Shown here piece after piece: positions 14,373-48,303 of a stretch of 64,000 nucleotides of DNA; position 1 is the stretch's first letter; each line of letters opens with the position of its first letter. The position numbers and the translations under genes were made by a program. Location of the stretch: NCBI GenBank assembly GCA_963700285.1, contig CAVOXA010000001.1, forward strand, positions 608,001-672,000, in the 5' to 3' direction. Below the pieces are notes generated by a model, which saw only the letters and a program-made list of their open reading frames with translations, was not told the origin of the DNA and did not search any database. This DNA is from an uncultured Chloroflexia bacterium. GTDB taxonomy: Bacteria; Chloroflexota; Anaerolineae; JAAYZQ01.

Positions 14373-14427
14373 TTCATGGCTTGTAGGCCATGCGCCTACC
14401 CCCTTTCCGCGAAGGTTCGCAGTGCGC

Positions 14428-14582
14428 GACCGTGGCGGGTGTCCTGGCTTGAGCAGGGCGCATTGGCCAATGGGCTGCTCTTACAGTTGCGGGACAGCGC
14501 CGGACTCTGCGTGCAGTGCACGCACCACCGGCTTTCCCCCTTGGGCCCCGTGCATCCGGGCAACGGGGCACCACGATCAGCA
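14428..14582 (-). promoter_or_regulatory. Cobalamin riboswitch
   Basis: Minus strand GGTGCC...AAGGGGGAAAGCCGGTG...AGTCCGGCGCTGTCCCGCAACTGTAA...AAGCCAGGACACCCGCC (B12 box); upstream TTGACA-18-TATACT at 14603-14632. Confidence 0.93.
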
Positions 14583-14635
14583 ATATTCAGTTGTCAGACC
14601 GCAGTATAGCACACCTGATGGGCGAATGTCAAACC

Positions 14636-23544: not shown

Positions 23545-23930
23545 CAAAAACCCCTTTCATCCACAAGGACGAAAGGGGCATCTCCCGCGTTACCACCCTG
23601 TTTGGCAGAAAGCTGCTAGTATCCAGCTATCAGCACGCCTTGAAGCCCATCGCCTCTTTGAGCAAACAAGAACTGATAGCCGGGTGCCGTACGCTCTTCA
23701 CCCACTCTGTCGCGATAACGGGCGAACCCGGACTGGCCTACAGCTGCTCTGGAAAGCTTACAATCAGCAGTTCTCGGTCAGCCAACTCCCAGGCGACCTT
23801 CAGCGGATGGCTGCTGTGGGGGGCTTGCAGCCGCTGACCCCCCTCTCTGCCGGACGGCATTCCGATGCTCGCAGGCACCCCGTACCTGTTCTCCAGGGCC
23901 CGTCCGCCTACTCCTCCTGTTCACTGTCAG
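23545..23930 (-). promoter_or_regulatory. T-box riboswitch (Val)
   Basis: AGGGTGGTAACGCG T-box (23586-23599), terminator with U-run, AGAGA and GCTG stem I motifs, specifier GAAG-GUC-GCC (Val codon at 23795-23797). Confidence 0.92.
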
Positions 23931-23976
23931 TGCATTATGACGGGCGGGCACGCATGGCCCGCCGAATGGTGCGATT

Positions 23977-30444: not shown

Positions 30445-32694
30445 TTACTTTGGTGCTACGCCTGGCAGGCGTTCCTCAATCTCCTCAAAATCAACTTGAC
30501 GGCCGATGAGCACCTCGCGCCCGCGCCCGGCTCCCTCATCCGGGCCGACGACGTCCTGTTCTTCCATTTGGTCCATCAGTCGGGCGGCACGTGGAAAACC
30601 AATCCGCAGTTGCCTCTGGATGAAGGAGGTCGACACCCGGTCCCTCCCCTCGATCAGAGCGATGGCTTCCGCCAGCTTGCCATCAAGCTGAGCGTCTGCC
30701 TCAGCTCCTGTCCAGGGTGAGAATAGTGGCGCCTGTTCCTCAACGGGTTCCTGGCCTCTCCAAAAGTCGGTCAGGCGCTGGATCTCGATATCCGAGACGA
30801 AACAGCCCTGAAGCCGGACGGGTGCTGCTTGCGAGGGTGACATAAACAGCATGTCGCCCCGGCCCAAGAGGTTCTCTGCGCCCCCCTGGTCGAGGATCAC
30901 GCGAGAGTCAATCTGACTGGTGACGGCAAAACTGATACGGGCCGGAAAGTTGGCCTTGATTAGGCCGGTCACGACATCCACACTGGGCCGCTGCGTGGCA
31001 ACCACCAGATGAATGCCCGTTGCCCGTCCCATCTGAGCTACGCGACAGAGGTGGCGTTCCACCTCGTCGGGGGCGGACATCATGAGGTCAGCTAGCTCGT
31101 CAATAAAGACGACCAAGTAAGGCAGCGGCTCTTCGTTCTTGCGGCGACTCATTCGCCGGTTGTACTCCTCCAGGTTCCGAACGCCAACCTTGTTGAATAT
31201 CTTGTAGCGACCGTCCATCTGGCGGGTGACCCAGGATAGCGCGCCTACTACTTGTTCAATGTCAATCACCACTGGAGCTAGCAGGTGAGGAATGCCGTTG
31301 TAGCCTGTCAGCTCGACCATTTTTGGGTCAACCATCAACATCTTGAGATCGCTTGGCGTGTTTCTGCACAGCAGGCAGCTGATGATGGTGTTTACGCAGA
31401 CGCTCTTACCCGACCCCGTGGCGCCAGCGATGAGCAGGTGGGGCATGAGGCCCAGATCCACCCCAACTGGGCTGCCAGAGACATCCTCGCCGAGAGCGAT
31501 GGCCAGTCCAGAATCGATGCGCTTGAACCCGGGCGACTCCATGATGGCGCGTAGGGATACCAACGAGACTACCTCGTTGGGCACCTCCAGGCCAACCACG
31601 GGCCGTCCCGGTACCGGTGCTTCGATGCGGATGGGTGATGCGGCCAGGGCCAAGGCCAGGTCGTTGGACAGGGCGGCGATTTTGCTTACCCGTACCCGAG
31701 TACGCTGTACTTCTCCGCCAGCAACCCGTCGTTCTGTGTAACCCGGGTCCAAGCCGTATTGGGTGATGGCGGGGCCCTGGTTCACTTCGACGACCCGGAC
31801 GGGAACCCCAAAGCTCTCCAGCGTGTCCTCAATGATCCGCGACTTGCGACGTGCGTCGGTGTCTCCATAGGCCCTGGGTGAGGCCGGATCTAGAAGTTCC
31901 AGTGAGGGAAGGTTTCCCGGCTGAGAGCGAGGCCCTGCCTGCTTTCTCCTGCCGGTTCTCTTGGACGTGCGCCTTCGTGTCTTGGCTTGTGCCCCGACCT
32001 CGGATGGATCCGGCTCCTGTTCCCACCAAGGTACCTCCTCTGGCTCAGGCGCCACGGCGGCGCCCTGCCGCGCGATCCGCCAGCGGCTGAAAGAGGCCGA
32101 GGTCAGCCGGTACTGGCGCTGGATCCAATACCACAGATCGTCCCAGGACACGGGCAGTACCAAAAAGAGGGCGAAGAGCAACCCCGTCCACAGGACAAGC
32201 GCGCCAATCAGTATGCCCAGCCCCTCTAGCAGAAGCACTGCCAGCGCCCAGCCCACGTGACCCCCGGCCCGGCCGTGTTGTGCCGCCTCCAGAGATGCCT
32301 CGACACCCGAGCGAAGGACCAGCGGCATGTGGCTGGCTGCCAGGGTGACCAGGAACAGCAGTTCTAGGCCGATGGCGGCTCCTATGTCAAAAGGCACATG
32401 GTCGCGCATGTCCTGCCATAGCAGGTAGATTCCCGCCAACGCAAGTCCTAGGGCCACCAGATAGGCACCCCAGCCAAAGAGCCGCTGCAAAGTTGTCGCC
32501 CACCAGCCCAGGATGGCACCTGACGAAACTCCAGCTAAACTGAGCAGGGTCAGAACAGCCACGATAAGCAGCACCAGGCCAATGGCCTCGCGCTGTATCG
32601 GTCCCAACTGGAGTTGCTCACCTGGCCATGCCGCCTGTAGCCGCTGCCCAATGGATGGTTTCTTTCTGGCGTTCCTTTTGCTTTTGCTGCTCAC
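30445..32694 (-). CDS. ftsK: DNA translocase FtsK/SpoIIIE
   Basis: N-terminal TMs, PHLLIAGATGSGKS, IDELAD, ATQRP, gamma-domain RAARL. Confidence 0.96.
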   Translation of the reverse strand: MSSKSKRNARKKPSIGQRLQAAWPGEQLQLGPIQREAIGLVLLIVAVLTLLSLAGVSSGAILGWWATTLQRLFGWGAYLVALGLALAGIYLLWQDMRDHVPFDIGAAIGLELLFLVTLAASHMPLVLRSGVEASLEAAQHGRAGGHVGWALAVLLLEGLGILIGALVLWTGLLFALFLVLPVSWDDLWYWIQRQYRLTSASFSRWRIARQGAAVAPEPEEVPWWEQEPDPSEVGAQAKTRRRTSKRTGRRKQAGPRSQPGNLPSLELLDPASPRAYGDTDARRKSRIIEDTLESFGVPVRVVEVNQGPAITQYGLDPGYTERRVAGGEVQRTRVRVSKIAALSNDLALALAASPIRIEAPVPGRPVVGLEVPNEVVSLVSLRAIMESPGFKRIDSGLAIALGEDVSGSPVGVDLGLMPHLLIAGATGSGKSVCVNTIISCLLCRNTPSDLKMLMVDPKMVELTGYNGIPHLLAPVVIDIEQVVGALSWVTRQMDGRYKIFNKVGVRNLEEYNRRMSRRKNEEPLPYLVVFIDELADLMMSAPDEVERHLCRVAQMGRATGIHLVVATQRPSVDVVTGLIKANFPARISFAVTSQIDSRVILDQGGAENLLGRGDMLFMSPSQAAPVRLQGCFVSDIEIQRLTDFWRGQEPVEEQAPLFSPWTGAEADAQLDGKLAEAIALIEGRDRVSTSFIQRQLRIGFPRAARLMDQMEEQDVVGPDEGAGRGREVLIGRQVDFEEIEERLPGVAPK

Positions 32695-32704
32695 GGTTTG
32701 ATTC

Positions 32705-33805
32705 TCAAGTTGACATTCCCGGTTCGCTGCTGTGCACCTGGCGGAGGCTCAAACCTATTCGATGCTTGGCTGTATCGACATTCAGTACCCGTACCTGGAT
32801 CACATCCCCTTCGCGGACGACGTTTCTGGGATGCATAAAACTCCCTTCCGCCAATTCTGAGATGTGGACGAGTCCTTCAAGTCCCTCTTCAAGGCGGACA
32901 AATGCACCAAAGCTCACCACGTTGGTGACGATTCCCTCGACCAGTTGGCCTGCCCAGTACCGAGTTTCTACCTGAGTCCAGGGATCTGGGCGCAACCGTT
33001 TCACGCTCAGGGCAACTCGGCCTTGATCGGGATGCACGCCCATCACCTGAACCTCAATGTCTTGGCTGGCATGCAGCACATCGCCTGGATGGCGGACCCG
33101 TTCCCACGAAATCTCAGAGATATGCACCAGGCCCTCGACACCCCCAAGGTCCACAAAAGCGCCAAATGTAGTCAGGTTGGTTACAATACCCTGGCATACA
33201 TCCCCTGGCTGTAGTCTGTGCAGGATGCCCGAGGGCGAGCCTGTCTGCTGGGTAGCTGCCCGCTCAGAGAAAATCAGTTGATTCTGAATCGGATCCACTT
33301 CAATGAGACACGCTGTCAGTGACTGGCCGATGCGTCCAGTAAGCTCTGATACCCGGTCGTGGTGCCCGTGCGGTCGTGTCACCTCCTTCAGATGAGAAGC
33401 AGGTACAAATCCCTTCAGGCCGTTCCACTCTACCAGAAGGCCACCTCGATTGGCACCGCAGATGCTCAGGTTGAACACGTCACCTCGTTCCAGGGCCAGG
33501 TGTGCGGCCTGCCACTGGTCCTCCTGGTTTTCGTCCAGTATGGACCCTGTACTATCGCTTCCCATCCCTGACATGATACCCAGGGAGCCAAAGATCTCCT
33601 GGGACTCTGCTGGGGGTACAGCCCATGCCGCGATCTCGCCTTGCTCCAATAGTACGCGCCAATAGTCCTCGTCAAGTACTGTCCACCAACTGTGGTCGTC
33701 TGCTGGTGCCTGCCGCAGTTCCAAACTCTCCTCCAAGCCTCTCTGCTTTCGGTTTTCTCTGTGACCCGCTCCTACTGGCTCTTTGTACCCAGTCTCAGAC
33801 ACCAC
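32705..33805 (-). CDS. S1 RNA-binding domain protein (3 S1 domains, RpsA paralog-like)
   Basis: GFVPAS and two FGAFV..GLVHISE repeats. Confidence 0.9.
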   Translation of the reverse strand: MVSETGYKEPVGAGHRENRKQRGLEESLELRQAPADDHSWWTVLDEDYWRVLLEQGEIAAWAVPPAESQEIFGSLGIMSGMGSDSTGSILDENQEDQWQAAHLALERGDVFNLSICGANRGGLLVEWNGLKGFVPASHLKEVTRPHGHHDRVSELTGRIGQSLTACLIEVDPIQNQLIFSERAATQQTGSPSGILHRLQPGDVCQGIVTNLTTFGAFVDLGGVEGLVHISEISWERVRHPGDVLHASQDIEVQVMGVHPDQGRVALSVKRLRPDPWTQVETRYWAGQLVEGIVTNVVSFGAFVRLEEGLEGLVHISELAEGSFMHPRNVVREGDVIQVRVLNVDTAKHRIGLSLRQVHSSEPGMST

Positions 33806-33835
33806 ACAAAGGAATGTGATATGATTATAGGATAC

Positions 33836-35806
33836 TCAAACTGGATTGTCAAGGTGGTTTTCCTGTACCACGACGTCAGGCCTGCCATCGCCATTCGGCG
33901 GAGGCGAGTTTCCATTCTGCTCCAGATCGGTCAGGACTCTGGCGACTTCGGTGATCGCGACACGCTGTTTCCGATACAGGTCTGACTCGCTCATGGCCAG
34001 GCGGTTGGCGACGTCCCTCACTCTCAGTCCCCGGATAAACTTGAACTCCAGGATGTTGTATAATATCCAGTCCGTGGTCGTCATCTGGCGCTCTCCCTCG
34101 GGCCGCAAGAGTTCAATGGCCTCGTGCAGAACGCTGCGAAGGGCATGTGTCGGAGGCCCACCCTGATCCTGGAGGGTGGAGCGCACGATACGAAGACCCA
34201 GCAAAGGACTCTCTGTTAGCTTTGGGCCGCCCCAATAGTGGCTCAAGGCATCCTTGACCCACTGCTGAAACTCGGGTGCATAGACGGGGCTGTCGGAAAT
34301 GATTTGCATGGGCGGCGCCCCGGCGTAGCGGGTGGCACCCCGCCATCGATGCAAACGTTCGATGTCAGGCACGATGTGACGCAGTGTATCGAACACGCTT
34401 TCCTGAAGGTAGCGATCCTCCAGAGCTTCCTGCGCTCGCCTGATGAGATGTGAAGCAACCTCCTGTTCCGAATCGGTGAGGTCAGGCTCTGGCCCCGGGG
34501 CCTCTACGCCCATCACTCCGAGGAGCATGTCGCTGCTCTGGCTGTGGAGCGGTACCAGCCAGAACTCGTTGCCAAGTGCAAAGTGGTTGCCCTCTTCCCG
34601 GTTACCGATGGACATGGCCACACTGGTCAGATCCCGACTCTCTAAGAAGCTGTCGACTCGATTTCTTTCCCCACAATGTGCTTCCAACCGGTGTTGCCCG
34701 CCAGCTAACACGGCGACAAAGCCGGTCCGGACCTGCAATAGATCGCAGAGGGCGGCCAACGTGTTCTCCAGAAAGGACTGTAGATCCCCAGTCGTGAGCA
34801 GCCGCCGGTCCAAAGTCTGTATCCAGGCAATCTCTTCTCGATCTTGGCGATAAATAATGCGATCGATGAATGGTTTGAACAAGTTGATGGCCAGCTGCAA
34901 AAGAACGACCACGCCAACTACTGCAAAGATGAGAACGGTGTCCCGTGGCAACCCAAGGATCTGCTGGACTTTGGGCACGGCCAACATGGTAAAGATCACC
35001 ACAGCGCCAACAAATGGACCGCGCAGCAGATAGTGGATGAGGCTGTGTTTGATCACTCGATCAGGCGTGAGGGCGCCAAAGTAGGCGACGCTGTATGCCA
35101 TGAGCACGATCATCAACAGCACGCCGATGTTACCGACCAGAAGCAGCGTCAAGAAGGCGCTAGGCGGCAGTGAAGCAGGCATGCTGGTGAGCAAAAGATA
35201 AGGAAAGACCCCCAAGGCGGGAGCTACAAAGGCAAGGCCCAGATAAGTCATACGCCGTCGCGATGCCCGGGTCAGGCAGCGGCGCCGGGCACGAAGGATA
35301 TTGGCCGCACCCCAAGCCACGGTTACAAAGAAATAGAGGGCAAAGACCCAGAACAGCGGTCCGGCAGTAAGATGGGAGGCGCGAGGCAAGTAGATGCCGT
35401 CGGCAACCAATAGATCGGTAAAGAAGACCAGCCCCAGGAAGCCAATACCCGCAGCATAGCTGAGCCCCGCGGCGATCCTTTGCCAGCGCGTCCGAACGTG
35501 AGTGGTACGCAGTAGGGCCACAGAGAAGTCGAGATAGGCAGCTGGCACGAGGGCGATGCCTATCCATTGAAACCTGAGCCAGCGGACAGCGTCCTCCTGA
35601 GCATCGACTCCATAAAGCGCCACATCACCGATGTATACAATCAGGACAAAGGCAAGGAGGGCACAGAAGGCCCGGGCCACGGGGCTTCGGAAGTTGTGGG
35701 TTAGAAGATAGATCAGTAGCGAAAAAGACGTGAGAACGATCGTGGCCGAGAGAACCTGGTTGGCCAGGGTCAGACTCCCGGTCATCAACGCTGTGATGAC
35801 TGACAT
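33836..35806 (-). CDS. HisKA_7TM-type membrane sensor without a kinase domain; C-terminal HTH-like region
   Basis: About 9 TMs, GAF-like middle, tail VRDVANRLAMSESDLYRKQR; no H-box or HATPase motifs. Confidence 0.75.
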   Translation of the reverse strand: MSVITALMTGSLTLANQVLSATIVLTSFSLLIYLLTHNFRSPVARAFCALLAFVLIVYIGDVALYGVDAQEDAVRWLRFQWIGIALVPAAYLDFSVALLRTTHVRTRWQRIAAGLSYAAGIGFLGLVFFTDLLVADGIYLPRASHLTAGPLFWVFALYFFVTVAWGAANILRARRRCLTRASRRRMTYLGLAFVAPALGVFPYLLLTSMPASLPPSAFLTLLLVGNIGVLLMIVLMAYSVAYFGALTPDRVIKHSLIHYLLRGPFVGAVVIFTMLAVPKVQQILGLPRDTVLIFAVVGVVVLLQLAINLFKPFIDRIIYRQDREEIAWIQTLDRRLLTTGDLQSFLENTLAALCDLLQVRTGFVAVLAGGQHRLEAHCGERNRVDSFLESRDLTSVAMSIGNREEGNHFALGNEFWLVPLHSQSSDMLLGVMGVEAPGPEPDLTDSEQEVASHLIRRAQEALEDRYLQESVFDTLRHIVPDIERLHRWRGATRYAGAPPMQIISDSPVYAPEFQQWVKDALSHYWGGPKLTESPLLGLRIVRSTLQDQGGPPTHALRSVLHEAIELLRPEGERQMTTTDWILYNILEFKFIRGLRVRDVANRLAMSESDLYRKQRVAITEVARVLTDLEQNGNSPPPNGDGRPDVVVQENHLDNPV

Positions 35807-35952
35807 AGAGAATCAACCCCACAGAGCCCGAAATATACAGCAGACCACGCTACTGCCTCTCATCACGTCACCCAATAAAGCCCCGTCCGTTCCCAAAAGC
35901 CCGTCGCGGTGTGCATGCTGTCGCCCTGCCGCCAAGGCCACCGCGAGTACCG

Positions 35953-36483
35953 TTAGCGAATCGGCTGCACGAAGAACAGGGCGATGTCCTGGTTCGGATA
36001 GTAGTGATCATTGAAGCCGCAGAAACGGAAACCCAGTTTCTGGTATAGACTCAGGGCTGGAAAGTTCTTGGTCGTCGCCTCGAGCAACACGGTCTTCAGA
36101 CCTTGTTCCCTGGCCCACTGGCGGGCTTGACCCACTAGCGCCGCACCGATCTTCCGACGCCGATACCCCCTGTCCACAGCCAGATTGACCACCTTGCCCG
36201 ATCCAAGCCACGGCTGGGCGATTACATCGACATAACCCCTTACCTCACCATCTACCTCGGCGACAAAGAACCCCTCTCCGCGCTGCCAATCTTCCACCAG
36301 TTGCTCGACGTCACGAGGGTACTGGATCTGCATCCGGCGGGGTAGGCGCACGATATCGAAAGCCACACTCACCCTGAGCTGTGACCTTTGGTCCTGCATC
36401 TGCCAAACGTGGTCAGTCTCGCAGCTGGGATCCAGCGAAAGGCAAGCATTCAGATCGGCCAAGGTAGCTGGGCGGATGTCCAT
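35953..36483 (-). CDS. GNAT N-acetyltransferase
   Basis: LAVDRGYRRRKIG and N.PAL.LYQKLGF motifs. Confidence 0.92.
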   Translation of the reverse strand: MDIRPATLADLNACLSLDPSCETDHVWQMQDQRSQLRVSVAFDIVRLPRRMQIQYPRDVEQLVEDWQRGEGFFVAEVDGEVRGYVDVIAQPWLGSGKVVNLAVDRGYRRRKIGAALVGQARQWAREQGLKTVLLEATTKNFPALSLYQKLGFRFCGFNDHYYPNQDIALFFVQPIR

Positions 36484-36901: not shown

Positions 36902-38173
36902 ATGGCAACAAAGACAACGATTCAAGCTGTAAAGGGAACCCGAGATTTTTACCCGGAGGCGATGGCCTTTCGAAACTGGCTCCACGACAAAGTGCGGGCT
37001 ACCTCCAAACGCTTCGGCTACCAGGAATGGGAGGCTCCAATCCTGGAGCGCCTAGATCTCTATGCGGCCAAGAGCGGTGAGGAACTGGTCAAGGAACAGT
37101 CCTTTGTCCTAACCGACCGGGGCGGTGATCAGCTAGCCTTACGCCCCGAACTGACCCCTTCCCTGGCGCGGTTGGTAGCCCAGCGGCAGGCAAGCCTGAT
37201 ACTGCCGGCGCGGTGGTTCTCTTTCGGCCCTTTCTGGCGCTATGAACGGCCCCAACGAGGCCGAACCCGTGAGTTCTTCCAGTGGAATATCGACATCTTG
37301 GGCGCCGAAACCCCTGCCGCCGACGGCGAAATCGTGGCCATCGGCGCCGAGTTCCTGCGCAGCCTGGGCTTGAGCGCCAGCGAAGTGGGCATCCACGTCA
37401 ACAGCCGGCGGCTGATGGAGCAGCAACTGGCTCGAATCGGCGTGGTGGACGAGCAGCGTGTAGACGTCTTTCGCTTGATCGACCGTCGTGATCGCCTCTC
37501 CCCAGATAAGTGGACCGAGTGGGCTCTGGACGCTGGTCTGTCAGAGAGCCAGTTGGCGGCTCTTAGCGACCTGTTGGCCAACGCTGACCTGTGGCAGGAA
37601 TCGGACGAGCTGCGCCAGGTCTTTGCCACAGCGGAGGCCTTTGGTGTGGCTGAGTACCTCACCTACGATGCGAGCATCGTGCGCGGGCTGGACTACTATA
37701 CTGGCCCGGTCTTTGAGGCCTACGATCGGGAGCGCAGGTTCCGCGCCATCTTTGGTGGCGGCCGTTACGACAACTTGGTGGCTGACGTCGGGGGCGACCG
37801 CATCACAGGCGTCGGTTTTGCCATGGGCGACGTAATCATCGAGTTGCTTTTGGAGCGAGTGGGCAAGTGTCCAGATCTTCCCGCTTCGCCCAGCCAGGTG
37901 CTGGTCACCCTCTTTGATGCCGATCTGTACTCCCAGACGCTGGCCTTCGCCGGACGGCTGCGCCGAGCGGGGGTCAATGCCGAACAGGTCCTGGAGCCCG
38001 CCCGCCTGGGCAAGCAGATCCGCCTTGCTGACCGCAAGGGCATTCCCTGTGTCGCCATCCTGGGGCCTGACGAACTGGAAGCCGGCCAAGTGGTGCTCAA
38101 GAACCTCTTGACAGGTGAGCAGCAGTCATGCTCGGAAGGGGAAGCTATCGAGCTGCTTCGATCGGGCCGCTAG
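36902..38173 (+). CDS. hisS: Histidine--tRNA ligase
   Basis: KGTRD, LRPELT, RYERPQRGR.REF, RGLDYYTG and GGRYD motifs. Confidence 0.98.
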   Translation: MATKTTIQAVKGTRDFYPEAMAFRNWLHDKVRATSKRFGYQEWEAPILERLDLYAAKSGEELVKEQSFVLTDRGGDQLALRPELTPSLARLVAQRQASLILPARWFSFGPFWRYERPQRGRTREFFQWNIDILGAETPAADGEIVAIGAEFLRSLGLSASEVGIHVNSRRLMEQQLARIGVVDEQRVDVFRLIDRRDRLSPDKWTEWALDAGLSESQLAALSDLLANADLWQESDELRQVFATAEAFGVAEYLTYDASIVRGLDYYTGPVFEAYDRERRFRAIFGGGRYDNLVADVGGDRITGVGFAMGDVIIELLLERVGKCPDLPASPSQVLVTLFDADLYSQTLAFAGRLRRAGVNAEQVLEPARLGKQIRLADRKGIPCVAILGPDELEAGQVVLKNLLTGEQQSCSEGEAIELLRSGR

Positions 38174-38287
38174 CATCAAGCCCCGGTCTGTTTCAACGGC
38201 TCGGACGCCAAATAAGGTTGCCCTGAGCCCTGAACAACCTTCAATGTTGAGCTTGACAAACATCCGAAAATAGGGTATGATAGACCT

Positions 38288-38573
38288 ACCTGATGTACCG
38301 CTAGGATTCTAAGGGACATCACTTTGATGTTGCTTTTGCCTTGTTCATAGGGCTTGCTCCTGGTCTCCAAGTGGGGAATCTGGTACGTAGTGGGTTGCGC
38401 TGATTCTAGGCCGCTCACGAACAGTTGTGCTTGCGGGGCAGAGATGCTCCGCCCAACGTAGGTCTGTTCGGACAGGAGGGCGTGGTCGAAAGGGTTGGGG
38501 GGGCCCTTCGGCTAGTAGTAGTGTCAACCTGAACCGACAGATAGGGGTGACGCCGCCCGGTGTCACCCCTTTT
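38288..38573 (+). ncRNA. Candidate structured non-coding RNA, family unassigned
   Basis: Promoter TTGACA-17-TATGAT (38253-38281), serial hairpins, terminator AGGGGTGAC..GTCACCCCTTTT, no credible ORF. Confidence 0.55.
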
Positions 38574-38576
38574 ACG

Positions 38577-38605
38577 TTGTATTTTGCCCGTGTTTCTGGT
38601 ATAAT
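38577..38605 (+). promoter_or_regulatory. Promoter for the HerA-like ATPase
   Basis: TTGTAT-17-TATAAT with TGn extension. Confidence 0.6.
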
Positions 38606-38824: not shown

Positions 38825-41365
38825 ATGGACCCAGTGGAAGAGCGACTAGCAAGCTTTTATTTGGGACAGGTGCACGACCTGGTGCAGAATGAGACCCTCG
38901 ATCAAGTTGTGGACTATGATGCTCGCGACTTGACAACCCACGCCGTCTGCCTTGGCATGACCGGCAGTGGTAAAACGGGTCTGGGCGTGATCCTGCTGGA
39001 AGAGGCCGCCCTTGACGGCGTTCCATCTTTGGTCATCGATCCCAAGGGCGACATGACCAACTTGCTCCTGACCTTTCCCGACCTATTGACCGAAGATTTT
39101 CAACCCTGGATCAACCCCGACGACGCCCGGCGCAAGGACATGGATCAGGAGAGCTATGCGGCCAGCATGGCCAATCTCTGGCGCAAGGGGCTGGCTGAGA
39201 CGGGACAGGGCCCGGAGCGCATCCGCCGCCTCAAAGAGTCCGCGGATTTTGCCATCTATACGCCTGGCAGCAGCGCCGGCCGGCAGGTAAGCATCCTCCA
39301 CACGCTCAAAGCCCCTGACCTTTCCTGGGACATCGATTCGGAACTGCTGCGGGACAAGATTGAGAGCGTCGTCTCGGCTCTGTTGGGCCTGATTGGCATC
39401 GAGGCCGACCCGGTGCGCAGCCGCGAGCACATCCTGTTGTCCAACATCTTTGAAAACGCCTGGCGCGCTGGCGAGGACCTCGACCTGGCGCAACTGATCG
39501 TGCGCGTCCAGAAGCCGCCCTTCTCCCAGCTTGGCGTGTTTCCCGTGGATACCTTTTTCCCGGAGAAGGACCGCATGGAACTTGCTATGTTGCTCAACGG
39601 CCTGATGGCCTCCCCGGCCTTTGCCGATTGGATCCAGGGCCAGCCCCTGGACATTGATGGACTGCTGCATGGTACTTTGGGCAAGCCGCAGGTCAGTGTC
39701 TTGTACATCGCCCACCTCTCGGAGCCGGAGAAGCAGTTCTTTGTCACCCTGCTCCTGGAGCAGGTGGTGAGCTGGATGCGGGCCCAGAGCGGGACCACTA
39801 GCCTGCGGGCTCTGGTCTACATGGACGAGATGTTCGGCTACCTGCCGCCCCATCCCGACAACCCGCCTACCAAGAAACCGCTGCTCACCCTGCTCAAGCA
39901 GGCGCGCGCCTTTGGCCTGGGTCTGATCCTGGCCACCCAGAACCCGGTTGACCTGGACTACAAGGCCCTGTCCAATGCGGGGACCTGGTTTATCGGCCGT
40001 ATGCAGGCCGATCGCGACAAGCAGCGCCTGCTGGACGGGCTGGAGGGTGTGCAAGTGGGCAAGGGCGGCACCAGCCGCGCTGAGTTTGACCGCATGATCT
40101 CGGCCGTTCAATCGCGGGTGTTCCTGCTGCACAACGTCCACGAAGACGAACCAGTGGTATTCCACACCCGCTGGGCCATGAGCTACCTGCGCGGCCCGCT
40201 CACGCGTACCCAGATCCAGCAGCTCGTAGCTCAGCAGGCTGTGGCCCCGGCTGCTGCCGCGGCACAGCCCGCTGCACCCCGAACTCAAGCTTCTTCCATG
40301 TACGTTGCGCCGCCCCCGGCGCCACCGCCCGAGCCGGTGATCCCCTATGGCCAGGTGCCGCCCCAACTGCCCTCAGGTGTCACACAGGTATATCTCCCGG
40401 CGCGGGTTTCCTTTGAGGATGCCTTGGACAAGCTGGCCCGCGAGCAGCGCTGGTCAGCGCGTTCAGCGCAGGATGCCGAGGGATACCTGGTCTACGAACC
40501 CAATCTGGTGGGACTGGCCACACTCCGCTTCCCGCACACCAGGAGTCGCCAGACCGCATCCCGGGAAGTTGCCTACCTGCTGCCCGCGGAGGCTGATCTC
40601 GGTGGTCTGGACTGGTCGCGGGGCCAGGTGGTATTGGATATCAGTGACCTGGAGCGGAATGCAGAACCGGATGCTTATTTTGCCGAGCTGCCCGCCGATC
40701 TGGGCGGCCTCCGCAGTCTCAGTTCCTTCCAGAAAGACTTTGCCGACTATTTGTATCACAATTCGTCCATCGCGCTATTGTACAACCCCAAGCTCAGTCT
40801 CTATTCCAAGCTGGATGAGTCCGATGAGCAGTTTCAGATGCGATGCCGCCAGGCTGCCGAGAAGGCGCGTGATGCCGAGATCAAACGGCTCGAGGCCAAG
40901 TACGAGAGCAAGTTGGATACCTTGGAAAACCGGCTGGAGCGCGAGGAACGTGAACTGGAGGAGGATAAGGTCGAGCACAGCGCCCGCAAGCAGGAGGAAT
41001 TGTTGTCGGGTGCCGAATCGCTCTTTGGCATGTTCTCAGGACGCAAGTCATCGCAGCGTCTCTCCTCGGCCAGCCGCCGGCGACGCATGACCCGCCAGGC
41101 CAGAGCGGAGATCAAGGAATCAGAAGAAGCCATTGAGGAGCTGGAGAAGGAGATCGAGGAATTGGAGGCTGAGGCCAGGGGCGAGGTGGAAGAGGTCACC
41201 GCCCGATGGCAGACCTATCTCGAGGAAATGCAAGAAGAGGAGGTCCGGCCACGCCGCACTGATGTGCAGGTCAACGTCTTTGCCCTGGCCTGGCTGCCCC
41301 GCTGGGAGGTAGAGGTTGCAGGCCAAACTCTGACTGTCCCGGCCTTTGAAGCGGAGCCGGTATAG
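38825..41365 (+). CDS. HerA/DUF87-DUF853-like P-loop ATPase with a C-terminal coiled coil
   Basis: THAVCLGMTGSGKT, IDPKGD, YMDE, KQARAFG, ATQNP motifs. Confidence 0.85.
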   Translation: MDPVEERLASFYLGQVHDLVQNETLDQVVDYDARDLTTHAVCLGMTGSGKTGLGVILLEEAALDGVPSLVIDPKGDMTNLLLTFPDLLTEDFQPWINPDDARRKDMDQESYAASMANLWRKGLAETGQGPERIRRLKESADFAIYTPGSSAGRQVSILHTLKAPDLSWDIDSELLRDKIESVVSALLGLIGIEADPVRSREHILLSNIFENAWRAGEDLDLAQLIVRVQKPPFSQLGVFPVDTFFPEKDRMELAMLLNGLMASPAFADWIQGQPLDIDGLLHGTLGKPQVSVLYIAHLSEPEKQFFVTLLLEQVVSWMRAQSGTTSLRALVYMDEMFGYLPPHPDNPPTKKPLLTLLKQARAFGLGLILATQNPVDLDYKALSNAGTWFIGRMQADRDKQRLLDGLEGVQVGKGGTSRAEFDRMISAVQSRVFLLHNVHEDEPVVFHTRWAMSYLRGPLTRTQIQQLVAQQAVAPAAAAAQPAAPRTQASSMYVAPPPAPPPEPVIPYGQVPPQLPSGVTQVYLPARVSFEDALDKLAREQRWSARSAQDAEGYLVYEPNLVGLATLRFPHTRSRQTASREVAYLLPAEADLGGLDWSRGQVVLDISDLERNAEPDAYFAELPADLGGLRSLSSFQKDFADYLYHNSSIALLYNPKLSLYSKLDESDEQFQMRCRQAAEKARDAEIKRLEAKYESKLDTLENRLEREERELEEDKVEHSARKQEELLSGAESLFGMFSGRKSSQRLSSASRRRRMTRQARAEIKESEEAIEELEKEIEELEAEARGEVEEVTARWQTYLEEMQEEEVRPRRTDVQVNVFALAWLPRWEVEVAGQTLTVPAFEAEPV

Positions 41366-44313: not shown

Positions 44314-44524
44314 TACAACCTCTTCAAAGAGATTTTGATATAATCGGATAGAGCCGCTTGAGCTTATTGCGAGCGTCAATGGACGTGAACTGCCAATTCA
44401 CAGTTGCTTGCTGCCCATTGCGTATTGCTTCCCAGGCGGCAATCTCGCGGCACAACGTATCTTCGTCGGGGATACGGTCCGCCAGGCATTGTTCGCACAA
44501 GACGCCAATCTCTATCTCGACCAT
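44313..44524 (-). mobile_element. IS630 family 3' remnant inserted at TA in codons 5-6 of the duplicated gene
   Basis: MVEIEIGVL..QCL..RI...W...RN.....VNWQFT..DAR.KLKRLYP C-terminus; ends at CTAG. Confidence 0.85.
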
Positions 44525-45781
44525 TGTAGTGACCCCCAAAAACTGGACAGGTGCGATAGTTAATGTACAATCAGTCCAGGAAAGGGGAAACCGAATGGCA
44601 AAGCGACGAAACTTCAAGCCGGAGTTCAAAGCCCGCCTCGTGCTCGAAGAGCTGACCGGCGCCAAGACCATGGCCGAGATCTGCCGGGAGCACCAACTGA
44701 GCGCGCCCGTCTTCTCTCGCTGGAAAGCCGAGTTCCTGAAACGGGCACCCGAGATCTTTGCGACGGAACCGAGCCGCGGCGACGAGCAGCAGCGTATCGC
44801 CGAGCTGGAACGGATGGTCGGGCGATTGACGATGGAGCTGGAAGCGGCAAAAAAAGCCTCGAGCATCTTGACCTCTCACTTGAGCGGAAACGGCAGGTGA
44901 TCCACATGCTGGCCGACGACTATTCTGTGAGCCTGCTGTGCGAGCTGCTCGGGTGTCCCAGGAGCAGCTACTACTACCAACCCAAGCTGCAAGACGAGAC
45001 CGAGGTCAAGAGCGCTATCGAGGATGTGGCGATCGAATGGCCGACCTACGGCTACCGCCGAGTCACCAAACAACTGCATCGCAACGGACGGGACGTCAAC
45101 CACAAACGGGTGCAGCGTCTGATGCGTGAGATGGGACTGCAGGTCAAAACCAAGCGAAAAGCCCGGAAAACGACCAATAGCGAGCACGATTTCCCACGCT
45201 ATCCGAACCTGGTCCAGGACATGGAGATCGTGCTACCCCGATCAGGTCTGGGTGTCCGACATCACCTACATCCGCTTGCGCGACGAGTTCGTGTACCTGG
45301 CCGTGATCATGGACGTGTTCACGCGCAGCATTCGTGGCTGGCACCTGGGACGCAGCCTCGACCAGACGTTGACCCTGATCGCCCTGGACCGCGCGCTGGC
45401 CGGCCACGCACCAGAGATTCACCACTCGGACCAGGGTATCCAGTACGCGGCCACAGCCTACATCCAGATGCTTCGAGCCGCTCGGCGCCGAGATCAGCAT
45501 GGCCGAGATCGGCGAGGCCTGGCAGAACGGCTACGCCGAGCGGCTCATCCGCACGATCAAAGAGGAGGAGGTTGACCTGTCGGAGTACGAGTGCTATACT
45601 GATGCTGTCTCCCAGCTGGGCCGATTCCTGAACGACGTCTACATGCACAAGCGGATCCACTCCTCGCTGGGCTATCTCACGCCAGCCGAGTTCGAGGAAC
45701 AGTGGCGCCGTGGGCGTGAGCAGCCTCTCGATGTTAACTAAAAACGGCTCCAAAAGTGTCCAGTTTCATGGGGTCACCGCA
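44525..45781 (+). mobile_element. IS3 family element (orfA 44595-44900, orfB to 45741)
   Basis: TIRs TGTAGTGACCCC..AACTGGACA / TGTCCAGTTT..GGGGTCACCGCA; A7G slippery site; DITY, HHSDQG and ER..RTIKEE motifs; two extra indels; no target duplication. Confidence 0.93.
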
Positions 45782-46576
45782 GTGCCCACCAGATGCACAC
45801 GGTGCGGCGTTGGAGGAAAGACCACTACGAGCAATGGCGCTACCACTGGGTGGTGCAGGTGCCAATCCGCGCGGGAGCCAAGGCGGTGCGAGTCAACTGG
45901 TGTGAAGTGACCGTTGTTCGCGAAGACAGCGGTGAGCAGGTCTATTACAATACCTGGATCACCAGTCATGATCTGAACACCAAGACCATCGAGGAAGTGG
46001 CGGATGCCGGGCGTACCCGCTGGAAGGTGGAGAACGAGGGATTCAATGTGCTCAAGAACCAAGGCTATCAGTTCGAGCACAACTTTGGCCACGGTCACCA
46101 GCACCTGTCGACGGTGTTACTGACGATGTTGTTTCTGGCTTTTCTCTTCCACACCGTGCTACATCTGACCAGTCGACTGTACGAGGCGCTTCGACAGGCC
46201 ATCGGCGCGCGGCGCGAGTTCTTCAACGACCTGCGTGCGCTGACCTGCTACCTCTACTTCCCCGGTTGGGACGAGATGCTGACCTTCATGGCCATCAAAC
46301 AAGAAGTGGCACTGAGCTGACCTAGTTCTCCTCGCCATCGTTTTGCCTTGGCGGTGCTGCTCCTCAAGCAGGCCACGACTTGAGGGCCGATATCCCCTGC
46401 TGGCTGCACTCTTACTCGCCTAGGCATCTTCGCTGCTCGGCTCCCTCGCCTCCTGCGGCGACCCACCTCGACTCCGCTTCGCCAGCTTACGGCAACGCCA
46501 TCTGCCATCCAAGTCGCCGGGACTACGCCTCGGTTCCCGTGTCAAACTCTCTACTCACCTAAAATAAGAATTGCTG
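45782..46576 (+). mobile_element. 3' remnant of an ISNCY/IS4-like transposase with its right end
   Basis: RWKVENEGFNVLKNQGYQFEHNFGHG motif (ORF ends 46320); end sequence AAAATAAGAATTGCTG. Confidence 0.8.
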
Positions 46577-46623: not shown

Positions 46624-46899
46624 GTAAAGTGTAAAAGGTGGACAGCGCCTCAGAAAGCGCGTGAATCGCGCGCTACGAACAGGCCCCACCCAGAGCGCAA
46701 CTGTCCGTAGCCGGCGATTTATCTCCATGTCCACAACTCCCTCGCTCCCACCATTCCTCGGCTCCTCCCACAGGGCTGATGTAGGACAAACACTGACAGG
46801 CATGCGAGCCCTTCGCCTACAACGGGATCAGACTACCACCGATAGACTTGAGCATACCAAAGGTGTACAATCTTGAGTACTGGAAAAGCTCAAGGTCTA

Positions 46900-48303
46900 C
46901 TAAGAAACCGTGGTTGAAGGTGCATGGTTGGGTATCAATTCGAATCCCATGGCAGCCGCCTTGCGCTTGAGGCTACGTACAACTCGATCGCGATACTGCT
47001 GTTCATAGTAGGAGACGCCAGGATCAGTGTAGGCCGTGCGGTTCTTTAACATGAAGTAGACAATCCGCGCAAGTTTGTGAGCAGTAGCTGTGAGGGCTTT
47101 GGCCGGACCCTGCCTCGCCTTCATGCGGCGGTAGAATGCGCCAACTGCACACTGGCTTCGGCTCAGGCTCTGAGCAGCCAGCCTGAATGCCAGATTGGCT
47201 CTGTTCTTGGTCTTCTTGGTGCGCCTGCGCAGTACCTTTCCGCCTGACGTATCGTTGTGGGGAGATAGACCTAGCCAAGAAGTGAAGTGCTTTACAGTGG
47301 GCCAAGCACTCACATCTGTGCCAATCTCGGTGATGATCGACTGGGCCGTCAGGGCATCAATGCCATCAATGGCAGTCAGGTCTACACCCACGACCTGATA
47401 GAGCGAAGCTGCTAGGTCAAAGTGGGCTTGGTTCTTGCGCGGCTTGCCCCTCTTTGGCTTAGGTGGCGGAGAAACCAGATCCTCTGGATCGGAGGGAGCC
47501 ATAGCAGCGTACATTGCCTCCATCTCTGTGTCACACTCCTGAAGCTGTTGCTGGTAGAAGTCGTATTGAGCCACCGCCTGCTTTAGGACAAACACGTGTT
47601 CCTGCTTGTAGTTGCCGTCCAGAGCCTTGGCAATCTGTTCTTCACTCTTGGCACAGCCTGGCTGTCGAAGCTCAGCCAGCTGGTGAGGGTCTCGCTCTCC
47701 AGCCACAATGGCGCGGATGATGCTCAGACCTGTCACACCGGTGATATCAGTGACAACCTGGCTTAGCTTCACATTCATCAGCTGCATGGCTTTCTGCATG
47801 TGCTGGATATGGGCAGAACGATACCGAATCAAGTTGTCCCGATGTCTGGCCAGCGCTCGTAGAGCGCATATCTCTTCAGGGGGCCGGAACGAGGCACGCA
47901 ACAGACCGTATGTGTGCAACTGCTGAATCCACTGAGAATCGTGGATGTCTGACTTCCGCCCAGGCACGTTCTTGACATGGCGGGCATTGACCAGGTAGAC
48001 TTCAAAGCCTCGGGCCTCGAGGATCTCGAAAACTGGGATCCAATAGATGCCTGTGGATTCCATCGCTACTGTGTCAATCTTGCAGGCCGTCAACCAGTCG
48101 GCTAACTCGTGCAAGTCAACAGTGAAGGTGGGAAAGACCCGCACCCGGTGTTCGTCCCGGCCACCTGGGACACAAGCGTAGATGTCCTCTGGATGAATAT
48201 CTAGTCCAGCAGCATTGAGATTAATCTGCTCCAGGACATCAAAGTCCGGAGCCTTCACAGCCGATTTCCTGCGTTTGGCCATTTTGGGGTGACTCCTACT
48301 CAT
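46900..48303 (-). CDS. IS110 DEDD recombinase/transposase
   Basis: GLDIH, MESTGIYW, RKSD..D motifs; C-terminal SWLGLSP...SGG serine motif; A.TATAHKLAR. Confidence 0.96.
   Translation of the reverse strand: MSRSHPKMAKRRKSAVKAPDFDVLEQINLNAAGLDIHPEDIYACVPGGRDEHRVRVFPTFTVDLHELADWLTACKIDTVAMESTGIYWIPVFEILEARGFEVYLVNARHVKNVPGRKSDIHDSQWIQQLHTYGLLRASFRPPEEICALRALARHRDNLIRYRSAHIQHMQKAMQLMNVKLSQVVTDITGVTGLSIIRAIVAGERDPHQLAELRQPGCAKSEEQIAKALDGNYKQEHVFVLKQAVAQYDFYQQQLQECDTEMEAMYAAMAPSDPEDLVSPPPKPKRGKPRKNQAHFDLAASLYQVVGVDLTAIDGIDALTAQSIITEIGTDVSAWPTVKHFTSWLGLSPHNDTSGGKVLRRRTKKTKNRANLAFRLAAQSLSRSQCAVGAFYRRMKARQGPAKALTATAHKLARIVYFMLKNRTAYTDPGVSYYEQQYRDRVVRSLKRKAAAMGFELIPNHAPSTTVS

Follow-up and report, generated by a model that had tools for sequence, protein, structure and literature searches.

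A structured RNA gene, absent from Rfam and restricted to one order of uncultured Anaerolineae

The locus at 38253-38573 on the forward strand of the analysed window (the whole stretch of 64,000 nt, G000:C1:608001-672000) is a gene for a folded RNA, absent from Rfam and restricted to one order of uncultured Anaerolineae. It is an undescribed member of the dual-function, or 3'-domain, kind of sRNA, with a putative mechanism of action. The gene is bounded by its promoter and terminator, the conserved portion being a folded RNA module of about 140 nt; this module is likely trans-acting and Hfq-independent, and its invariant G6 loop would pair with a C-rich site of a partner RNA. A probability of about 0.45 is assigned to this explanation as a whole. 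Its parts differ in strength: a functional RNA that does not depend on a peptide is very probable, its action in trans is probable, and for action by base pairing of the G loop, as opposed to protein or ribosome binding, the chances are slightly below even. The selected RNA module needs neither the peptide encoded upstream of it in many relatives, nor a fixed neighbour, nor Hfq; the selected function would reside in the RNA domain.

The transcription unit

A sigma70-type promoter (TTGACA-17-TATGAT, score 11/12), found at 38253..38281 (+), bears out the near-consensus promoter of the original prediction. One such site is found, against 0.5 expected in shuffles, and promoter-like sites scoring at least 11/12 number 511 in the whole 7-Mb genome. 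A promoter scoring 10-12/12 is located 20-310 nt 5' of the conserved core in 63 of the 66 full-core loci; for two of the other three, no upstream sequence is present. The predicted primary transcript, whose start is inferred from the -10 box, spans ~287 nt, 38287..38573 (+). It ends with a terminator hairpin at 38543..38573 (+), as strong as had been claimed: a 12-bp stem (38543-38570), with a GCCC loop, is followed by U4. A TGTACC-like word occurs near the transcript start (38294-38300) and again at 38423-38432, just before the first conserved hairpin (P0), and recurs in many loci (L113, L020).

Six of 14 listed metatranscriptome runs, chosen for holding this region, were compared, and contigs on the unit are present in five. 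X2 features a contig at 38318-38466 with one difference, its only contig within 19.9 kb, and X3 one at 38313-38472 with none; the contigs from X5, X6 and X9 (38371-38525/38539) come from a relative, with 13-14 differences. X4 holds an exact piece of hisS and nothing on the RNA, while X3 also holds near-exact pieces at 46660-47132. The aligned contig parts all stay inside 38313-38571; one X3 contig, from a relative, continues beyond 38571 and the terminator into unrelated sequence. The contigs are unstranded, with depths of 3-6, and X5 and X6 may belong to one campaign: together, these data are a weak positive indication for expression of the unit.

Conserved fold of the 3' part

Conservation is confined to the 3' ~140 nt, composed of hairpin P0, an 8-nt linker, a bulged rod carrying a G loop, and a terminator conserved in sequence. 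Folding z-scores are -3.5 for the whole 291 nt and -1.6 without the terminator; by halves, the 5' 146 nt score -1.34 (17/200 shuffles) and the 3' 141 nt -4.8.

P0 (38433..38452, +) is an 8-bp hairpin with a variable loop. A stem of this type, at least 6 bp long and ending 7-10 nt (mostly 8) 5' of the core, is present in 46 of the 56 distinct loci, against a mean of 2.9 and a maximum of 7 in shuffles, and its arms, GCGGGGCA and TGCTCCGC, vary in concert among loci. In L018 P0 is absent, and the start lies 20 nt ahead of the core. The single-stranded linker (38453..38460, +) keeps a fixed spacing of 8 nt; it is a putative processing site, which P0 and linker together may mark.

The core (38461-38573) measures 112-114 nt in all 56 distinct loci, with leaders of 20-310 nt. 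Its rod (38461..38542, +; z -3.42), with the terminator directly 3' of it, is composed of an 18-bp lower helix, an asymmetric internal loop at 38515-38522, upper helices of 6 and 5 bp, and a 7-nt apical loop, (A/U)GGGGGG, at 38496..38502 (+). This loop, a putative recognition site closed by an invariant U-G pair, is W+G6 in 47 of 49 distinct cores; in the remaining two it is one G shorter, and no other substitutions are found. Also invariant are the helix base GGUC/GAU, one CG/CG pair, the extended loop U(A/U)GGGGGGG and, in the terminator, the 5' arm AGGGGUGA with its GCCC loop, and CCGCCCGG. AGGGGUGA and CCGCCCGG were part of the pattern used for the metagenome search, yet both were already invariant in the 22 loci found by BLAST, chosen without this motif.

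In these 22 BLAST-found sequences, 97% of the cells pair and two-sided changes occur in 14 of 41 pairs, a level reached by none of 500 shuffles; RNAalifold independently gives the identical fold. In the alignment of 56 distinct rows, which was fitted to the covariance model and leans toward it, two-sided changes affect 17 of 41 pairs. On a tree of 49 cores, about 13 compensatory events fall on the proposed pairs, compared to a null mean of 0.9 and maximum of 5.5 (10,000 draws). G-U cells outnumber A-C cells by 167 to 5, which fixes the fold on the + strand. Alignment A3 leaves out four loci cut by contig ends (L090, L112, L017, L021).

The fold of serial hairpins originally proposed over ~285 nt is not supported, constraint being limited to the 3' ~140 nt. 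All of the named arms are present, and comparison supports two of the pairings, GCGGGGCA/TGCTCCGC (P0) and the arm GGTCG..GGGT/GCCC..CGGCT. The 5' hairpins GACATC/GATGTT and GAATC/GATTC fall in a drifting stretch, which folds no better than shuffles (z -1.34); the bases assigned to a CTGT-TCGG-ACAG hairpin pair long-range, within the covarying rod, instead; and the suggested 5'-3' pairing CCTACCTG/CAGATAGG is absent from the MFE structure and clashes with the supported fold.

Distribution of the RNA

With BLASTN, the 3' part was recovered from 22 of 22 other family members and from none of 38 genomes outside the family. The covariance model R1 matches in 23 of 23 sampled genomes of the order, two matches being cut by contig ends; with the covariation and the lack of an Rfam match and of an antiterminator, this sustains the stand-alone, novel structured ncRNA originally predicted. 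The RNA is essentially single copy. G012, a MAG with 6% contamination, carries two divergent copies, one with the ORF and before the ATPase gene (L005), the other without ORF and in a different context (L024), by paralogy or contamination.

Among 150 genomes of the class, R1 gave strong matches in three family members and weak ones in three others. The weak matches (30-32 bits, other families) are plain terminators, located 3' of an ABC-ATPase-like gene (L030) and of what, from the translation, is presumably an rpsI-like gene (L029, L031); no true match to the core was thus obtained in the 147 other-family genomes of the class, nor any match in 150 genomes of the phylum. These whole-genome searches used strict filters, with about 23 candidates scored per genome, which a very divergent homologue could escape. 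With filters off, a synteny search of 26 GNAT and 26 DUF87-ATPase loci of other families found the core in none (best scores 18.0 and 16.6 bits).

An exact 21-mer retrieved 23 loci among 185,579 GTDB genomes, all from MAGs labelled Anaerolineae, Anaerolineaceae, Chloroflexia or Chloroflexota. The metagenome pattern gave 50 loci: 44 with a full core, two truncated and four (L087, L102, L104, L111) matching the pattern by chance, with zero score against the model. No locus was found in viral contigs or phages.

At the gathering cut-off, Rfam 15 reports nothing at 38253-38573 in a scan of the whole window; at E<=10, the locus and 12 homologous loci give only chance miRNA and snoRNA scores, below 15 bits. 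The Rfam comparison proposed with the original prediction thus returns no family for the locus. Literature searches, covering titles and the openings of abstracts, retrieved neither such an RNA nor any small regulatory RNA for this group, and the main texts of PMC8632094 and PMC11109978, whose supplements may list genomes and motifs, contain no mention of Chloroflexi or Anaerolineae.

A decayed small-protein gene in the 5' half

Many leaders encode a protein of 37-42 aa, preceded by an SD sequence and composed of one hydrophobic helix and a polar tail. In the window, a decayed copy of this gene, for a 41-aa single-pass membrane protein, occupies 38311..38412 (+): an SD-like AAGGGA is present, the homologous frame has no start codon, the frame is offset near the start, and two in-frame stops follow (38401, 38407). 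For the protein profile, 38326-38412 is the best match of the genome (E 0.0037); the nucleotide profile of the ORF scores the remnant at E 2.6e-8. The description of the transcript as ORF-less is right for intact ORFs only, since a conserved 41-aa ORF survives in decayed form at 38326-38412. A conserved small ORF, which had been named as grounds for refuting the ncRNA, does exist in relatives; the ORF is dispensable and the RNA is not, which changes the claim and leaves it alive.

Compared to a genome of the same genus, 26 of 129 nt are mismatched in the 5' stretch, 1 of 50 in P0, and 1 of 112 in the core. Promoter and RNA outlast the ORF: of the 56 distinct loci, 19 have it intact (including L005, where it spans an N gap), 14 as a broken remnant and 23 in no detectable form, and the core is kept in the 37 loci without an intact ORF. 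For 22 GTDB loci, the numbers of intact, remnant and missing ORFs are 5, 6 and 11. Where the ORF is intact, it lies with its SD on the same transcript as the RNA, and a pooled dN/dS of ~0.13 over 11 intact 41-codon copies (a rough value, as pS is 0.71) indicates purifying selection.

On a tree of 37 downstream ATPases and four outgroups, the intact state requires nine changes, four of them forced by starred branches, a count that gives no direction; the state is unclustered (57 of 500 shuffles reach so low a count), and intact copies alternate with broken ones even between very close relatives. Most simply, this is read as many losses of an ancestral ORF. Deletions between the TGTACC-like words could explain the short ORF-free leaders.

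The peptide defines a new family of 41-aa membrane proteins, with 80 clusters and no match at cut-off in Pfam or NCBIfam; LapA_dom, YtxH and MTLN give weak, generic TM-anchor scores, all below cut-off. In 300 genomes of the class, profile matches outside the family are TM segments of long ORFs. HMMER, run on 1.84 billion representatives, gave ten matches, eight from the same family and two from low-complexity repeats, and a search for longer forms gave a single match, an N-extended call.

Comparison with known RNAs

6S RNA is a rod of ~180 nt, with a large two-sided central bubble. The RNA described here resembles it in its long irregular hairpin, its strong promoter and, in this genome, its location 3' of hisS, but its rod measures 82 nt, with an internal loop of 1 x 8-9 nt and no large central bubble, in a 113-nt core without RF00013 match. 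The suggestion of a divergent 6S is not supported: the canonical 6S of the genome is located at C1:933069-933248 (82.7 bits, the only RF00013 match at E<=10), and hisS lies upstream in just 9 of 23 GTDB records. The reported absence of tmRNA, RNase P and SRP signatures was confirmed at the locus, and no tRNA or tmRNA was found within the window. A large SRP RNA (173 bits, on C10), a tmRNA (on C1) and an RNase P-like RNA lie elsewhere in the genome, as does 6S, so that the locus does not stand in for a housekeeping RNA that the genome lacks. The RNase P-like RNA (G000:C1:600312-600786, -) spans 475 nt and scores 72.8 bits (cut-off 100), suggesting large insertions.

6C RNA (RF01066) is a hairpin RNA with a homopolymer loop, conserved throughout its lineage. 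From 6C, and from sRNAs with C-rich loops such as RoxS/RsaE and CcsR, the present RNA differs in that its loop is G6, not C6, the strand of the G loop being fixed by the G-U polarity; a CcsR1 match on L018, at 18 bits far short of cut-off, falls on the opposite strand. Sponges of the CsrB/RsmZ type carry conserved GGA motifs in their loops. Here the GGA motifs are in stems, where compensatory changes alter them, and PF02599 is missing from G000; a sponge of this type was rejected.

The closest likeness, of organization only, is to SgrS and its peptide SgrT. According to PMC2760806 and PMC12612679, SgrS features a small ORF at the 5' side (43 aa, versus 41 here) and its RNA function at the 3' side, before the terminator, and some homologues drop the ORF and keep the RNA part; in Y. 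pestis sgrT is missing and the 3' pairing region is kept (PMC2760806). By analogy, the full-length form of the present RNA would be a dual-function RNA, with a small protein and a 3' RNA domain. No sequence relation to SgrS is found (no Rfam match), the peptide belongs to a family of its own and is predicted to form one TM helix, and ORF loss is here frequent and recurrent. SgrS, according to the same sources (PMC2760806, PMC12612679), needs Hfq, whereas the RNA described here is a long covarying rod, mostly found without Hfq.

Possible modes of action

The G6 loop would be the recognition site. RosA of Bacillus subtilis, as described in PMC8216469, uses single-stranded G-rich stretches to pair with C-rich sRNAs; these stretches number three, and RoxS and FsrA are its known partners, whereas the present RNA has a single G loop, in a hairpin. 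Pairing with a C-rich RNA is favoured because the loop admits no G-to-A change and because RosA is a precedent. The search for such a partner yielded none: an unpaired C5-C6 loop is missing from all 39 promoter-terminator units in G000, the predicted starts of 5,446 roughly called genes show no enrichment of C6 nearby, 6C RNA has no match in the genome, and a set of 758 C-loop hairpins was uninformative. The minD leader, the one candidate compared among genomes, was discarded as partner, a run of C5 or longer being present in just 2 of 23 genomes. Against pairing, the conserved single-stranded part is just 7 nt, a short seed, and the rigid rod of fixed length, with its invariant helix junction and terminator, resembles an RNA recognized by a protein or by structure more than it does a typical pairing sRNA.

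Hfq (PF17209) is found in 2 of the 23 genomes of the order (G000 and G001; the MAGs are 71-95% complete). An Hfq-dependent sRNA was therefore rejected, Hfq being confined to the genus of G000 and not present wherever the RNA is. The Hfq of G000 (73 aa, above the Pfam cut-off; L221:4437-4658, G000:C10:62448-62621, -) is encoded between an IS110 transposase gene and a gene which, from its translation, is SMC/SbcC-like; above cut-off, Hfq occurs in 4 of 301 genomes of the class, and within the order in this genus only. RNase Y is present in G000.

Binding of a protein or of the ribosome is the main rival to G-C pairing. The RNA could serve in trans as decoy or scaffold: a protein would bind the rod and the G loop; alternatively, the SD-like loop, or else the AGGGGUGAY arm of the terminator, would dock on the anti-SD tail of 16S rRNA, sequestering or protecting the 30S subunit. 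Such a role fits with the fixed length and geometry, the invariant junction, the strong conserved promoter, and a presence throughout the order like that of a housekeeping RNA. Computed energies are also compatible with it: the loop binds the 16S tail of the genome with -9.8 to -10.4 kcal/mol, compared to -10.5 for a consensus SD, and the AGGGGUGAY arm with -10.9 to -11.8 kcal/mol. However, GGAGG, the better SD, appears in no loop among 49 cores, the SD-like arm is buried inside the terminator stem, and, of the usual candidate protein partners, CsrA, ProQ and Ro60 gave no match in G000 (89% complete), and the distribution of Hfq is patchy. This second reading is accordingly held unlikely, though the least so among the alternatives.

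Clearly less credible is a self-contained tertiary fold or oligomer, in which the G6 loop would form a kissing contact with CCGCCC at the terminator loop, either intramolecularly, the internal loop acting as a kink, or intermolecularly, or in which quartets would form from G loops. Both loops are invariant, 5 of 6 positions can pair between them (-10.8 to -11.3 kcal/mol), and helix lengths are fixed; yet the G-G mismatch is never corrected, the terminator loop offers just 4 nt unless two C-G pairs open, and the invariant columns yield no readable covariation.

A cis element is equally improbable, be it a leader attenuating or insulating the downstream DUF87/HerA-like ATPase gene (38825..41365, +; likely start 38825) or a mere 3' stabilizer of the small-protein mRNA. 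The ATPase gene does follow in 19 of 22 GTDB loci, and in L015, L016 and L018 it starts ~30-60 nt past the terminator, with no separate promoter detected. In the other 16 of these 19 loci, however, a promoter scoring at least 8/12 precedes it; in the window this is TTGTAT-17-TATAAT, with an extended -10 TG, at 38577..38605 (+), just past the terminator, where the original prediction had placed it. Moreover, L020 and L023 have a convergent gene downstream and L024 a different one, and L110 and L122 have the start of an aldo-keto-reductase-like gene; the RNA outlasts the loss of the ORF; and, in other families, 26 of 26 ATPase loci lack the RNA. No antiterminator competes, since folds barred from forming the terminator are 19.8-25.9 kcal/mol less stable in 63 of 63 loci, by thermodynamics only. 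The case made against a riboswitch leader is therefore upheld: neither a constant, co-oriented, promoterless downstream gene nor an antiterminator fold is found.

The upstream side is not constant either. hisS (36902..38173, +), outside the unit, is the upstream neighbour in 9 of 23 GTDB records, a divergent GNAT gene in three and neither in six, five being too short. In the window, a GNAT gene is clustered at 30445-36483 (-) with genes for an FtsK-like protein (from the translation), a protein with three S1 domains and a HisKA_7TM protein; this GNAT has homologues in 116 of 151 genomes of the class, and in some relatives it faces the promoter of the RNA directly.

A type I toxin-antitoxin system, with the hydrophobic peptide as toxin under control of the structured 3' end, can be dismissed as most improbable: the small single-helix peptide with its charged tail, often lost, would suit it, but no conserved antisense promoter is found (best 9/12, in 2 of 56 loci), the locus occurs once, on the chromosome, and viral contigs contain no copy, the sense strand carries the fold, and the structure is fully conserved after deletion of the ORF.

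Other elements in the window and genome

A T-box leader at 23562-23933 (-), with its own 12/12 promoter and terminator, scores 57 bits (E 7.8e-12) and was missed by the standard scan because this is below the Rfam gathering score of 93. A cobalamin riboswitch is located at 14417-14590 (-; 71.4 bits), and fragmented ORFs with IS-type transposase-like translations at 44324-46320. Three related promoter-terminator units of ~72 nt, sharing the same 5' end, were seen at G000:C1:672491 (-), which falls just outside the window, C5:10 (+) and C10:1924724 (+); they look like a small multicopy family of sRNAs or antitoxins.

Implications

The presence of the RNA in every sampled genome of the order, together with a near-consensus promoter, indicates a core function in these sediment bacteria. 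A G loop, mostly in genomes without Hfq, mirrors the C-rich loops common among sRNAs, and offers a single mutable site. It is doubtful, though somewhat less so than for the tertiary or cis readings, that this is a new kind of housekeeping RNA shared by the whole order, a rod of fixed length that arose from an mRNA and docks with its G6 loop on a dedicated protein or on the anti-SD tail of the ribosome.

A 2025 review suggests that dual-function RNAs may derive from mRNAs with a regulatory UTR or 3' part, and leaves as an open question how they originate from mRNAs and which function gets lost (PMC12612679). The 56 loci bear on this question: the protein function decays repeatedly, the RNA stays. 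If the origin from an mRNA is true, an RNA would be seen emerging with every stage alive among relatives: an intact peptide gene, a lost start codon, a frameshift, an internal deletion and, finally, a promoter 20 nt from the core.
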